A DNA stretch of 64,000 nucleotides, from the NCBI GenBank assembly GCA_030295235.1, contig AP026126.1:1-64000 (forward strand). The letters are read 5' to 3'. A model generated the notes under the pieces. The model was not told where the DNA came from, ran no database searches, and worked only from the letters and a program-made list of their open reading frames with translations. Below are positions 57,089 through 64,000 of the stretch, in pieces (the first letter of the stretch is position 1; every line of letters starts with the position of its first letter). This DNA is from Fistulifera solaris (lineage: Eukaryota). Position numbers and translations under genes: made by a program.

Positions 57089-60000
57089 ATGTCGGATTTG
57101 AGAAATGCCGATGATCCTATCTGGATCGACAAAGTGTGGCTCGACACGATCGTCGTCGCCGGCTTGACGTGCTTCATTCTTTGTCTCATGGGTCTCTCAC
57201 AGGTGCGTTGTTTAGTTTTCGACAAGTCGACCATCCGTCTTTTGCGTTTCTCACGACAATTTCTTAAAAAAAGGTCCCCACGGCCAAAATGGGCATACTT
57301 TACGGCATTGCCGGAATGATTGCTCTTATCGTAGCATATTGGGTAGACGATACCTACACATACGATGAAGGAACGTGGTTGATTGCGGCCAGCATGGCGC
57401 CTGGAGCAGTAGCCGGTCTCATCAGTGCGGTGGTCGTAGAAATGACGGCTTTGCCGGAAATGGTGGGAGCCTACAATGGATTTGGTGGCTTGGCTGCCGC
57501 CGTAGCGGGGTACGGTTTGTATTTGGATCCAGGTGCAACATTTTTAGTGCGAGACGGAATACAAGTGGTCGAGCAAACAGACGAAATGTTGATTGTTCAA
57601 GCCATTGCTTTGTGGCTCAGCATTGTGATCGGTTTGATGACATTCACCGGGAGTATGGTGGCGACACTCAAACTGCATGGAACAATTGCTAGCAAGTCGG
57701 TCATGATTCCAGCGCGTGGACTCTACACGGCGGTCATCTTTGCTGTCATGGTTGTCTTCGGCGTACTGGCCTTTGCCGGGGACCAAACATGGAATGATCG
57801 TCAAGCCGGTATTGCCTACTTGGCTATTGTTGGAGCGGCAGCCGGCTTGTACGGATACACGGCTGTAATGGCGATAGGTGGTGGTGACATGCCAGTTAGT
57901 ATCAGCTTCCTCAATTCTTTGTCAGGATTTAGTACAACTGCTACTGGTTTCATGCTTTTCAATAAAGCACTTGTCGTTGCCGGAGCATTTGTGGGGTGCA
58001 GCGGAATCATCTTGACGATCATCATGTGCAAAGCCATGAATCGCAATGTCACCAATGTACTGCTCGGAGGCTTCGGTGAAGGGTCTTCCACGGAGCAAAA
58101 AGGAGCAAAGTCAAAAGATGACAAGGAGGGCGATGTAACGATGGTAGAAGCAAGCGAAGTGTTGGAAACGTTAACTTCGGCCAAGTCAGTTATTATTGTT
58201 CCAGGGTATGGCATGGTACGTTTCGATTTCGTGGCATACAGTGTCATGCAAATTTGTTATGTGCCTCTAACACAGCTGCACGAATTACTCCATTTAGGCG
58301 GTGGCCAAAGCACAGCATGCCATTGCCGAGTTGACAACTCGTCTTCGTCGTTTGGGCATTATGGTTCGTTTCGCCATTCATCCCGTAGCTGGGCGAATGC
58401 CAGGACATATGAACGTGTTGTTGGCCGAAGCACATGTTCCGTATGACATTACGGTCTCCATGGACCAAATTAATCAAGATTTCCCTTCGACGGATGTCGT
58501 GCTCATCCTTGGTGGCAACGATATTGTCAATCCAGCGGCACAAACGGATCCCGACAGTCCTATTGCGGGGATGCCTGTATTGGAAGTGTGGAAAGCCAAA
58601 ACAACGATTGTCATGAAACGAAGTCTTCGTGTCGGATACGCTGGTATTGAGAATCCATTGTTTTTGAAGCCCAACAATCGCATGTACCTCGGCGACGCCA
58701 AAGAAAGCACCGAAAAGCTGGTCGCGTTGGTCGGTAACGTGAACAAAGATGCTGTGAGTGACACTGACGGCACCCATCTGGATGATGAAGAGACGGCGGT
58801 TCCAACGTTATCCAAACAAGAAAAGGAGATGCTGCAATTTGCGGAAGATCTACCAAAGTTACGAGAAGCTGTCTTTCTCAGAGTTGGTGTCATTCGCGAA
58901 GTGGATCCAGATGAAGAAAAAGTCGCGATTGTACCCGCCGGTTGTAAAGACCTTATGAAACAAGGTATCCAAGTGTACGTGGAAAGCGGAGCCGGAGAAA
59001 AGGGACAATTCTTTGATTCCATGTACGAAGCAAACGGCGCGATTGTGCTTTCCTCCGCTCAACAAGTTCTGGATACGGCCGACATTTTGGTCAAGATTGG
59101 TGCCCCCACATTTCATCCAGACCTAAACCAACACGAAATCGACAGAATGTCAAACAAAACGTTAATCAGTTTCCTAGGACCCCGCACAGAACAAGGGAAA
59201 ACACTCATGACACGTGCCGTCGAGCACAAGGTCAATTTGTTGGCCGTTGATGCCATTCCCCGCATATCGCGAGCCCAAAGCCTCGATGTATTGAGTTCGC
59301 AAGCCAAAGTTGCCGGTTATCGTGCCGTGATCCAAGCCGCTTATCAGTTGCAAAAATTTTGCAATGGTGAGATCACTTCCGCGGGCAGTTTCGAACCTTC
59401 CAAATTCTTAGTGGTCGGTGCCGGTGTCGCGGGGTTGGCCGCCATCAGCACGGCCTCCAATCTTGGAGCGCACGTCCGTGCCTTTGATACACGATTGGAA
59501 ACCAAAGAACAAGTCGAATCACTCGGGGGACACTTTTTAGTGTTGGATTTCGACAGCGAGTCGGGTGGTGATGCGGCGGGGTATGCCAAAGTAATGAGTG
59601 ATGCGTTTTACGAAAAGAAATGGCCTTGTTTTTGCAACAAGCCAAAGAAGTGGATGTCATTATCACAACGGCAGCTATACCCGGCCGTCCGGCACCTGTG
59701 TTGATTCAAGCCGAACACGTGAACGCTATGAAGCCTGGCGGGGTCATTGTCGATTTGGCGGGTGGTAATTGCGCCTTGACCCGTCCGAAAGAAACCTATG
59801 TACACAATGGTATCACCATCATCGGCAGCGATATGACCAATCAAGCGATGAATTGGCAAGCTTCGACCATGTACAGCAACAATATCGTGAATCTGTTGGG
59901 TATGTTGTGCAAAGATCGGCAAATGAATTGGAATGCAAACGATCCGGTGATTCGTGGTATGACGTGTGTATGGAATGGCGATATATTGTTTCCTCCTCCG

Positions 60001-60477
60001 GAAAGTATGACGGCAACAGCTGCCGCACCGCAGCAAAATAGTAGTAGTACCAAGAACATTGCAACCCCAGAGAAGAAGAAACCAAGCCAACCAACGTTTC
60101 TGGAACATCGTCTTTGGGATTTGGCGTCCGTTCGTGAATTCTTGCTCGTGGGTGTGCTCGCGATCTTCTTTGCCGTGGTAGCCGCCTTTGCTCCCGTCGT
60201 GTTTTCCCAACAACTTGGTTACTTCATCTTAGCGGCATTTTTGGGTTATTATTTGATTGAAAATGTCAATTCGGCACTATTCAGTCCATTGATGAGTACG
60301 AGCAATGCTCTTTCCGGTGTGGTCATTTTGGGCGGTTTGCTCATGGTTTCGGTAGAGATTGGTTCTCCGACGAGTTGGTTGGGATGTATTTCGACGTGTG
60401 TCGCCGCGATTAATGTATTTGGGGGATTTGCGGTTTCGTATCGCATGTTACTCATGTTCAACAAAGAGAAGCTTTGA
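57089..60477 (+). CDS. NNT: Proton-translocating NAD(P)+ transhydrogenase, single chain in beta-alpha order
   Basis: Beta dII ([19 protein letters not shown]), dIII ([30 protein letters not shown]), linker, alpha dI ([25 protein letters not shown]) and alpha TM ([19 protein letters not shown]). Introns 57203-57273 and 58216-58297. A-run deletion at ~59615. Confidence 0.95.
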
Positions 60478-61476: not shown

Positions 61477-64000
61477 ATGACGGAAGGTTTCTCCAATTAT
61501 AAAACCGAAACCAAATGCGTCGACGGAAATTGGGCCGTCGCTCACGTGGCGTATCGCACGAACGACTGTGCTTACATCTTTCCGATTACACCGTCTTCTC
61601 CCATGGGAGAAGAAGTCGATGCGTGGGCCGCAGAACATAAGAAAAAATCTCTTTGGGCAAGAACTCAAAGTCGTCGAATTGCAAAGTGAAGCGGGAGCCG
61701 GTGCGTAGCGAGAGAGAGAAAGTTGTGTGTGTGTGTTTTTTTTGGTTGGTTTGCAAAAGTGATCTGGTTCTCCTCACCCTCCTCTTGCACATCTTTCGTC
61801 GTTCTTCACAGCCGGCGCACTCCATGGCGCACTTGTACTCGGAGCACTCGCTACGACATTCACGGCCTCCCAAGGTCTCTTGTTGTACATTCCCAATTTG
61901 TACAAAATTGCCGGTGAGTTGTTGCCAACCGTCATTCACGTCGCTTCCAGGGCCCTGGCGGGCGAAGCCCTTTCGATCTACGGAGATCACAGTGATACCA
62001 TGTTAGTAAGAGGGTGTGGCTTGGCCATGCTGTCATCGTTCAGTGTCCAAGAGGCCCACGACATGGCGGCAATTGCGCAAGTGGCGACCTTGCAGTCACG
62101 AGTACCCTTTTGCATTTCATGGATGGCTTCCGTACCTCGCATGAAGTCAATAAGATTACCTTGATCAGTGATGAGCAGTTGAAGGTATTGCTGCCGTACG
62201 ACAAGATTGAAGAGCATCGTCGGCGTAGCTTGTCGCCGATGCATCCGACGTAAGTGAAAGTAGTTGGTTGGGAATGTCGTTCATTTTAGTAATACTCACC
62301 AACACGTTAATTTTCGCAGTCAACGAGGAACCGCACAGGGACCGGATGTGTTTATGCAATTGGTCGAAAGCAGTAACACGTACTATCAGGCCGTAGATGG
62401 GATTATCGAAAAGGCCATGGCGGATTTTGCAGCCGTGACAGGTCGTACCTATCATCCCTATGAGTATGCCTATTACGGAACGACGCAGCCAACGGTAGCC
62501 ATCATCACCATGGGATCTTCTGTGCGGGTGGTGGATCGTGCTCTGCACTATTTAAAGAGCGAGCAAGCGTGTATGATTGCGATTCGCATGTTCCGTCCTT
62601 GGGCGGCCAAGAAATTCGTGGCACTCATTCCCCCGTCGGTACAGCGCATAGCCGTCCTCGATCGCACCCGAGAAGGAGGTTCTCAAGGTGAACCGCTGTA
62701 TTTGGATGTTTGCACATCCTTACAGACGCAAAACCGGCACGGCATTTTCGTCGCGGGTGGGCGATATGGGCTGGGAAGCAAGGATTTCACGCCGCGCATG
62801 GTGCATTCAGTAATTCAAAACATGCTCCGCAAGGATGTTCATGATATTCAGCATCCTTTCACGGTGGGAATTACGGATGATGTCACTCACTTATCGTTGC
62901 CGCTGGGTCGTCCTCTAAGTACGATTGGCGATGAGGCGACGCAATGCGTCTTTATGGATTCGGAAGTGATGGTACGGTGGGAGCGAACAAGGAAGCCATC
63001 AAAATGATTGGGAATTATCAGGAGCAAACTAAAGTGCAAGCTTATTTCGAATACGATGCTAAGAAGAGCAGTGGATGGACGGTCTCGCACATGCGTTTCT
63101 CTCCAGGGACAGAAATTGACGCGCCATTTCGAATTGAAGAGGGCCAGGGAGATTACGTAGCCTGTCACAACGAGTCGTATGTACAAGCCAACAAGTTTGA
63201 TATTGTCAAATTTCTCAAGCGGCGCGGTACTTTCTTTCTAAATACAACCTGCGCTTCCGTTGCGGATCCGAAAGAGCGCTTGGAAGCGTTAGAAGCGCTT
63301 GTTTGTCATAAAACTCTCCGCAAGCTCGCCTTGAAGAATGCCAAGTTCTACATCATGGATGCTGGTCGCCTGGCCAGCAAATACGGACTTCCTGGACGTA
63401 TCAACGTAATCTGCATGTGCGTCTTCTTCCGCTTGAGTAGTGTCTTGCCGTTAGAAGATGCGATCGCGCTCTTGAAATCGTCCATCAGGAAGACGTATTC
63501 GTACAAGGGCGAAGACATCATGCAGAAAAACATCGATCTACTCGATACAGTTGTTAATGATCCGGAAAGTCTGTTACTAGTAGACATTCCGAAAAGGTGG
63601 CGAGCTTTTGAGGATGCAGAACAGGCCTTTTCCAAGCGACACGTGGCACTGATCGATGACGAAAAGGCGCGGCAATTTATGCAAGACATTGGTGATCCTG
63701 TTGCTCGGTTACAAGGAGACGCTATTCCTATCTCGAAGTTCCTTCAAAATAATCTTTTGGGTGGCGTTATGATTCCAGGTACATCGAAGTACGAGAAACG
63801 TAATCCGAATCCCAGCAAAAAGGTACCTGTATGGGAGCCCAACAACTGCACACAGTGTAATCAATGCGTCTTCATTTGCCCGCACGCTGCTATCCGGCCC
63901 TTTATTGTCACGAGAGATGAAGTTACAAAGGCTCCCCATCCCGAAACCTTTCAAACACTTAAGGCAACCGGTGTTGAACTCCAAGGAAAGCGTTACGCAC
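61477..64000 (+). CDS. PFOR: Pyruvate:ferredoxin oxidoreductase (or PNO fusion), 5' part running off the window
   Basis: [78 protein letters not shown] and 4Fe-4[14 protein letters not shown]. Introns 61701-61811 and 62250-62319. Homopolymer indels at ~61645, ~62108 and ~62952. Confidence 0.95.

Follow-up and report, generated by a model that had tools for sequence, protein, structure and literature searches.

Does the side-by-side placement of two redox genes in a diatom reflect a gene cluster held together by selection, or an accident of gene order? The question is raised by a 64,000-nucleotide stretch of Fistulifera solaris DNA (positions 1 to 64,000 of contig AP026126.1; hereafter the window), in which a transhydrogenase gene (NNT, 57089-60477) is followed by a PFOR-type gene (termed PNO below) that runs from 61477 to the window end, both on the + strand and head to tail. 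An earlier note, made from the letters alone, had read the pair as a candidate cluster for redox balance under anoxia. The gene identities, the host origin and the adjacency that it described all stand, whereas the separate transcripts of the two genes and the lack of anaerobic genes among the upstream open reading frames (ORFs) scanned speak against its cluster or module reading. The adjacency is, in our judgement, probably an incidental, lineage-specific accident in the order of two independently transcribed genes rather than a selected, co-regulated anoxia cluster, and the two enzymes may still draw on one NADPH pool in the cell.

NNT and PNO are adjacent and give rise to separate messages

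The two redox genes are physically adjacent. The ATG of NNT, at 57089, coincides with the start coordinate first given. The stop codon of NNT and the ATG of PNO are 999 bp apart on the same strand, in line with the spacing of about 1 kb first described, and this is the kind of neighbourhood expected of a metabolic gene cluster. Contigs of four small public read runs (X1 to X4; one organism, one study) were placed on positions 57000-64000; X5, a wetland metagenome with a share of 0.11, forms no part of this evidence. X1 behaves as DNA, with cover in all 30 bins, introns retained and no intron joints. One X1 contig, which matches the window letter for letter over 60246-61408, bridges the end of NNT almost to the start of PNO. 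It is not independent proof of the adjacency, because X1 may be source data of the window assembly. Read contigs break at a low-complexity (CAAA)n/A-rich stretch at 61409-61446.

The other three runs (X2, X3, X4) behave like RNA: two of the four runs show NNT intron 1 spliced out and three show the same for the other three introns, with splice joints that match the modelled intron coordinates exactly; both genes are thus intron-bearing, as had been claimed, and all four spliceosomal introns were seen spliced in read contigs. The NNT message carries loose ends of 20-21 A behind position 60601 in X2 and X4, about 27 nt past an AATAAA signal, placing its polyadenylation ∼875 bp ahead of the PNO start codon. 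Depth is zero over 60744-61211 in all three RNA-like runs. Because the introns are spliced, a poly(A) tail begins at 60601 and no RNA covers 60744-61211, the locus yields two separate mRNAs of a eukaryote. These are real, expressed, spliced nuclear genes with separate messages.

The read-corrected NNT is 100% identical over 1078/1078 residues to a Fistulifera solaris protein, GAX19811.1 (P0345; on a contig of 171,053 bp), and 95.3% identical to a second F. solaris protein, GAX22781.1 (on a contig of 91,492 bp). F. solaris is described in PMC5935921 as an oil-accumulating allopolyploid diatom with 42 homoeologous chromosome pairs and ∼45% GC, and the base composition of the window is consistent with that value. 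CRISPR RNP editing has been reported in this diatom (PMC13276009). The pair comprises two ordinary nuclear genes of this allopolyploid oleaginous diatom, or of a genome identical to it at the locus, and the view that they are host genes of an alga is supported. Contamination, considered as a separate possibility, is refuted by the spliced introns, the poly(A) tail and the diatom relatives.

Both genes are already deposited in GenBank and appear in a published gene table. There, g10622, a transhydrogenase, is directly followed by g10623, a PFOR-NADPH-cytochrome entry with FMN and TPP binding terms, and because the identifiers are consecutive the adjacency was already implicit in that F. solaris annotation. 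We infer from the numbering that g10622 is this copy rather than the homeolog GAX22781.1. No mention of NNT-PNO adjacency in a diatom was found in the literature searched. The gene models fso:g10622 and fso:g10623 thus bear the two annotations given here, and the window DNA differs in having four homopolymer errors in the coding regions.

Each of these four errors concerns one base, with one error in NNT and three in PNO. The window is without one A after 59612 in NNT exon 3, which X1 and X2 supply, X3 and X4 being without cover at this point. All four runs agree on the PNO errors: one A too many at 61642 in exon 1 is dropped, and a missing T is inserted after 62107 in exon 2 and after 62950 in exon 3. 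Pseudogenes and programmed frameshifts were considered as explanations for the frame breaks and ruled out, each break being one homopolymer base that is corrected by reads. A 26-nt intron at 59592-59617 was also rejected; the reads correct the break, and the intron would delete a conserved VMSDAF stretch. Four further single-base indels lie in non-coding DNA, at 61227, 61356, 61719 and 61736, making eight in 7 kb. Gene calls elsewhere in the window should allow for such homopolymer frame breaks.

The transhydrogenase is a single chain in beta-alpha order

Stop-to-stop ORFs over 57-64 kb were scanned against Pfam, and the expected families were found in 7/7 pieces. Within NNT, the ORF at 57268-58446 matches PNTB profile positions 23-313. 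The ORF at 58298-59704 matches PNTB positions 313-455 and then AlaDh_PNT_N and the start of AlaDh_PNT_C, and the ORF at 59602-60477 holds the remainder of AlaDh_PNT_C followed by PNTB_4TM. Because one ORF contains both the PNTB end and the AlaDh_PNT_N start, the transhydrogenase is a single chain in beta-then-alpha order, the arrangement that had been recognised from the letters. Corrected for the missing base, its coding sequence is unbroken up to the TGA stop codon at 60475-60477 and encodes 1078 uninterrupted residues, with dIII preceding dI in one polypeptide.

All three functional domains are present. The dI domain is matched by AlaDh_PNT_N (E 3e-34) and by AlaDh_PNT_C in two pieces (2e-19 and 1e-31), and it aligns to dI of structures 6qti, 1x13 and 1f8g; residues 194-439 of the exon 3 product correspond to 57-298 of 6qti. 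The dIII domain covers PNTB profile positions 313-455 of 456 (E 5e-73), and residues 2-145 of the same exon product align to 937-1080 of 6qti. The membrane domain dII is represented by PNTB positions 23-313 and PNTB_4TM, with hydrophobic segments within residues 21-289 and 969-1065 in a crude hydropathy scan. Both dI and dIII align over their whole length with those of the animal mitochondrial NNT (6qti) and bacterial PntAB (1x13, 2bru, 9l76). Domain order differs among these systems, being alpha-beta in animals, divided between separate subunits in bacteria and beta-alpha in F. solaris. From its family membership, the enzyme would transfer hydride between NADH and NADPH and couple this to the passage of protons through a membrane.

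The beta-alpha fusion is shared with relatives. Of 120 proteins listed for the exon that spans the beta-alpha junction, 24 span at least 98% of its length with 62-69% identity, those of Seminavis robusta and Nitzschia inconspicua among them; the remaining 96, all bacterial and PntB-type, match about a third of the exon. For the C-terminal part of NNT, listed matches stand at 95%, 94% and 78% identity. The F. solaris NNT lay behind a 724-aa cluster representative in the similarity listings, and both F. solaris proteins sit in the 90% cluster of the best match. By inspection only, ∼20 acidic residues at the N-terminus lead straight into the first helix with no presequence-like extension, and the same N-terminal architecture is found in nine full-length diatom relatives. 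The beta-alpha transhydrogenases of Apicomplexa and Entamoeba are, like the F. solaris enzyme, single chains with the beta part before the alpha part. The F. solaris NNT belongs to a diatom clade, unlike these enzymes. A beta-alpha transhydrogenase has been reported in the Plasmodium apicoplast (PMC9292941), and that of Entamoeba outside the mitosomes (PMC8887013).

The PFOR-type gene is almost certainly a PNO

Pfam matches on the PFOR-type gene run in the order POR_N (two pieces), PFOR_II, POR, EKR and the first 4Fe-4S motif (Fer4), giving PFOR domains I, II, III and IV and the ferredoxin-like domain V. The first CxxCxxCxxxCP motif lies at 63847-63882, and an X4 contig spans 62320-64000 without any joint. 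The PNO exon aligns with the PFOR structures 6cin and 1b0p over their residues 420-735, which comprise domains III to V (E 1e-65). These structures are the homodimeric PFORs of Moorella thermoacetica (6cin) and Desulfovibrio africanus (1b0p). Corrected for the three homopolymer errors, the part of the gene in the window encodes the first 781 residues uninterrupted, and the window ends in domain V, before the TPP domain VI.

The decisive feature of a PNO, the CPR module, would lie past position 64000, and relatives of the protein point to its presence. The PNO part is 80% identical (784 columns) to residues 1-784 of a 1814-aa PNO-type protein. Of the listed relatives that are 1300 aa or longer and 60% or more identical, 24/24 carry flavodoxin (PF00258) and FAD_binding_1 (PF00667), and 21 of these also carry NAD_binding_1. 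The CPR-bearing relatives named are from Nitzschia inconspicua, a Bacillariaceae metagenome-assembled genome, Conticribra weissflogii, Thalassiosira spp., Stephanocyclus and a Triceratium transcriptome. These close relatives add a CPR module of ∼600 residues, unlike the homodimeric PFORs. A further listed relative, P0164 (1261 aa, 58% identity), shows no CPR domain. No PNO match above 80% identity was listed, which is explained by length limits on cluster representatives. Bacterial PFORs rank after the diatom matches, at 40-45% identity.

Judged from these relatives and from the published annotation of g10623, the gene is almost certainly a PNO, the kind of PFOR proposed for it at the outset. 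By family membership, the enzyme would convert pyruvate to acetyl-CoA and CO2 and pass electrons through Fe-S clusters and flavins to NADP+. The conserved PFOR core starts at residue 14, and no mitochondrial presequence was seen on PNO by inspection only; the N-termini of 13 diatom PNO-type proteins are likewise short and hydrophilic on inspection. Euglena PNO bears a mitochondrial transit peptide, unlike the diatom protein, in which ∼13 residues precede the core, and Cryptosporidium PNO, a PFOR-CPR fusion, lacks such a peptide.

Gene order in relatives and two clades of diatom NNT

Contigs of other diatoms were compared for linkage of the two genes. The listed NNT homeologs of Nitzschia inconspicua lie on contigs of 3,679,959 and 3,618,388 bp and its PNO homeologs on contigs of 6,358,255 and 6,574,884 bp. 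In Thalassiosira sp. AJA248-18 the two genes are on different contigs, of 10,455 bp for NNT and 30,145 bp for PNO. No contig of equal size was found between the 33 NNT rows and the 26 PNO rows from 20 expanded clusters, a comparison that sees only cluster representatives and longest contigs. A metagenome scan with a PNO exon returned 91 pattern matches, two of which encode a relative, on contigs of 5113 and 3977 bp that begin inside PNO. A scan of prokaryote genomes with the NNT C-terminus returned 80 pattern matches and 0 relatives.

In a quick maximum-likelihood tree of 29 diatom NNTs (SH-aLRT support only, midpoint root), the proteins fall into two clades, each with an SH-aLRT of 100. Clade A holds the NNTs of F. 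solaris, Seminavis and Thalassiosira profunda (P0345, P0086, P0290), and clade B those of Nitzschia inconspicua, Cylindrotheca, Thalassiosira sp. AJA248-18 and Skeletonema (P0113, P0307, P0337). Because centric and pennate species occur in both, the clades look like two paralogs. PMC9292941 reports two transhydrogenase genes for Nitzschia Nitz4, which agrees with two clades. The N. inconspicua and Thalassiosira sp. NNTs that lie on other contigs than PNO are clade-B proteins, unlike the clade-A NNT of the window, and any synteny test must keep the two diatom NNT clades apart.

Each of the four runs also has, over both genes, further contigs that are 90-95% alike (57393-57489, 58577-59413, 62374-62678 and elsewhere), and their differences fall mostly at intervals of three. 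These contigs fit a homeologous copy of the allopolyploid, whose two NNT proteins differ to the extent given above. Contigs of X1, X2 and X3 match from 61241 on and carry 255 unrelated letters before 61241; these letters probably come from upstream of the homeologous PNO copy, a region that has diverged and is apparently transcribed.

Incidental neighbours or a selected pair

The reading of the adjacency as incidental draws first on the transcripts. Neither a shared transcript nor a divergent promoter was found: NNT ends at its poly(A) site at 60601, the spacer is uncovered in 3/3 RNA-like runs and the genes stand in tandem. The proposal of a co-regulated pair finds no support in these two tandem transcription units, in which NNT has its own poly(A) site and no RNA covers 60744-61211. 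The TABASTA promoter motif, common to g10622 and g10623 in Table S5, occurs 25 times in the 64 kb, with three occurrences upstream of the two genes, and is not distinctive.

The wider neighbourhood points the same way. Pfam revealed no hydrogenase, maturase, ferredoxin, PFL or acetate-forming gene among 58 ORFs scanned in the 57 kb upstream, these having been chosen, mainly for length, out of 164 ORFs of at least 90 aa. A Pfam family was assigned to 14 of the 58, all of housekeeping type: eIF W2, RING, phosphoesterase, sulfotransferase-aminotransferase, GH10, Leo1, PCMT, patatin, FtsH, FKBP and queuosine salvage. A wider anoxia module is thus unsupported by the upstream region, no anaerobic gene having turned up among the ORFs scanned.

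Several points weigh against an accident. The adjacency of exactly PNO and NNT is a pointed coincidence, because the two form a functional couple in the wax-ester fermentation of Euglena gracilis. Both proteins are without an N-terminal targeting extension, by inspection only, and the soluble domains of NNT and PNO could face the same compartment. A variant DNA contig of X1 joins 60503 to 61039 and 61077 to 61383, one side of it being 26 letters only, below the threshold of 31, a hint that the two genes are neighbours in the second homeolog as well. Nor does the negative evidence on synteny carry much weight: the placed NNTs of Nitzschia and Thalassiosira sp. belong to clade B and are probably not orthologous to the NNT of the window, and the contig comparison is limited to the representatives and longest contigs it could see.

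The foremost alternative is that the pair is a selected two-gene redox module, sharing a chromatin state, in which NADPH made by PNO under hypoxia or in the dark would be passed through NNT to NADH, or the reverse, as in Euglena. There is a precedent for it. The mitochondrial PNO and NNT of Euglena gracilis belong to the same two enzyme families as the F. solaris pair, and the title of Nakazawa et al. 2021, as cited in PMC10407231, presents NNT that converts PNO-made NADPH to NADH as indispensable for anaerobic metabolism; the legend to the Euglena wax-ester pathway in PMC13660438 includes both enzymes. The suggestion that NNT rebalances the reductant made by PNO accordingly has a known model in that cited title and legend, and a functional coupling of the two enzymes is plausible on it. 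The pair's shared strand and 999-bp spacing, the RNA-like contigs for both genes in all three RNA-like runs, the lack of a targeting extension seen on inspection and the hint that the homeolog keeps the pair add to the case. Set against selection are the separate polyadenylated transcripts with a spacer free of RNA cover, the lack of further anaerobic genes among the upstream ORFs scanned and the fact that no relative could be shown to keep the NNT-PNO linkage. An NNT of this type is also widespread in diatoms, whereas a four-diatom survey reported PFO only in T. pseudonana (Atteia et al. 2013, as cited elsewhere), and by our own uncomputed estimate chance alone would place NAD(P)-linked genes side by side many times in a genome. 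We regard a selected module as unlikely, although it deserves more weight than any other alternative, and the cluster interpretation as an unproven hypothesis with good biochemical precedent.

A more specific version of selected linkage is improbable in our view. It would have the clade-A NNT and the presequence-less PNO kept as a linked pair in both subgenomes, acting as a two-gene redox valve with their soluble domains facing one compartment. That compartment would possibly be the cytosol, with NNT in an energised non-mitochondrial membrane, as reported for its Entamoeba and Plasmodium relatives. Glycolytic pyruvate might then be turned into acetyl-CoA and NADPH, and the NADPH traded for NADH under hypoxia or oil accumulation.

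Slightly less credence still is given to a pair that serves lipid supply, in which PNO would provide acetyl-CoA and NADPH for fatty-acid synthesis and NNT would tune the NADPH/NADH ratio, so that the adjacency would concern oil rather than anoxia. The host is an oil-accumulating diatom, as PMC5935921 states; both genes are transcribed in the RNA-like runs, and the products of PNO are, by established biochemistry, substrates of fatty-acid synthesis. PFOR-type enzymes are, however, known to be oxygen-sensitive. Diatom fatty-acid synthesis is plastidial according to PMC9292941, and no plastid signal was seen on either protein by inspection.

Finally, joint horizontal transfer of the pair, or an origin by contamination or misassembly, is scarcely credible: PFOR and PntAB are typical bacterial enzymes and bacterial PFORs come next after the diatom matches, at the identities given above, but all four spliceosomal introns are seen spliced out in the RNA-like contigs, the NNT message is polyadenylated, the closest relatives of both genes are diatom proteins, the beta-alpha fusion is common to all diatom relatives, NNT occurs in many diatoms without a listed PNO, and the X1 contig spans the end of NNT to 61408.

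A functional linkage would place the pair among very few diatom metabolic gene pairs maintained by selection. The Euglena PNO-NNT couple would then have a counterpart in a photosynthetic stramenopile exploited for its oil, and this would offer a handle on the survival of benthic diatoms in dark, anoxic sediment. The analysis also fixes the gene models, shows the frame breaks to be assembly errors and reveals two apparent clades of diatom NNT.

Gene models and neighbouring features

Table 1. Exons, introns and flanking features of the NNT-PNO locus, in window coordinates.
Feature	Position	Strand	Details
NNT exon 1	57089..57202	+	ATG at 57089; spliced contigs in X3, X4
NNT intron 1	57203..57273	+	71 nt, GTGCGT..AG; joint 57200>57272 (cut +2) in X3, X4
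NNT exon 2	57274..58215	+	Beta-part membrane domain, PNTB, Pfam E 9e-78
NNT intron 2	58216..58297	+	82 nt, GTACGT..AG; joint 58214>58297 (cut +1) in X2, X3, X4
NNT exon 3	58298..60477	+	dIII (PNTB end), linker, dI (AlaDh_PNT_N/C), C-terminal 4-helix membrane part
NNT 3' untranslated region	60478..60601	+	AATAAA 60569-60574; poly(A) site ∼60601
Intergenic spacer and PNO 5' region	60602..61476	.	Uncovered in RNA-like runs over 60744-61211
PNO exon 1	61477..61700	+	ATG 61477; start of PFOR domain I; in-frame stop upstream of ATG
PNO intron 1	61701..61811	+	111 nt, GTGCGT..CAG; joint 61699>61811 (cut +1) in X2, X3, X4
PNO exon 2	61812..62249	+	POR_N (Pfam)
PNO intron 2	62250..62319	+	70 nt, GTAAGT..AG; joint 62249>62320 in X2, X3, X4
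PNO exon 3, cut by window end	62320..64000	+	PFOR_II, POR (domain III), EKR, first CxxCxxCxxxCP

Several features were noted elsewhere in the window. Directly upstream of NNT, the region 48000-55500 carries long ORFs on both strands that are rich in Ser, Arg and Lys, of low complexity and without a Pfam family. In a 585-residue ORF at 13204-14958 (+), Sulfotransfer_5 (E 3e-26) is fused, unusually, with a class IV aminotransferase domain (E 8e-47). Close by, at 15005-16363 (-), an ORF of glycoside hydrolase family 10 (xylanase-type; E 3e-80) is unbroken over 453 residues and is possibly a bacterial-derived gene in the diatom. At 26595-28924 (+), an FtsH-type protease (AAA and Peptidase_M41) is split over two overlapping frames near 27731-27800, and this split may be another homopolymer error or an intron.

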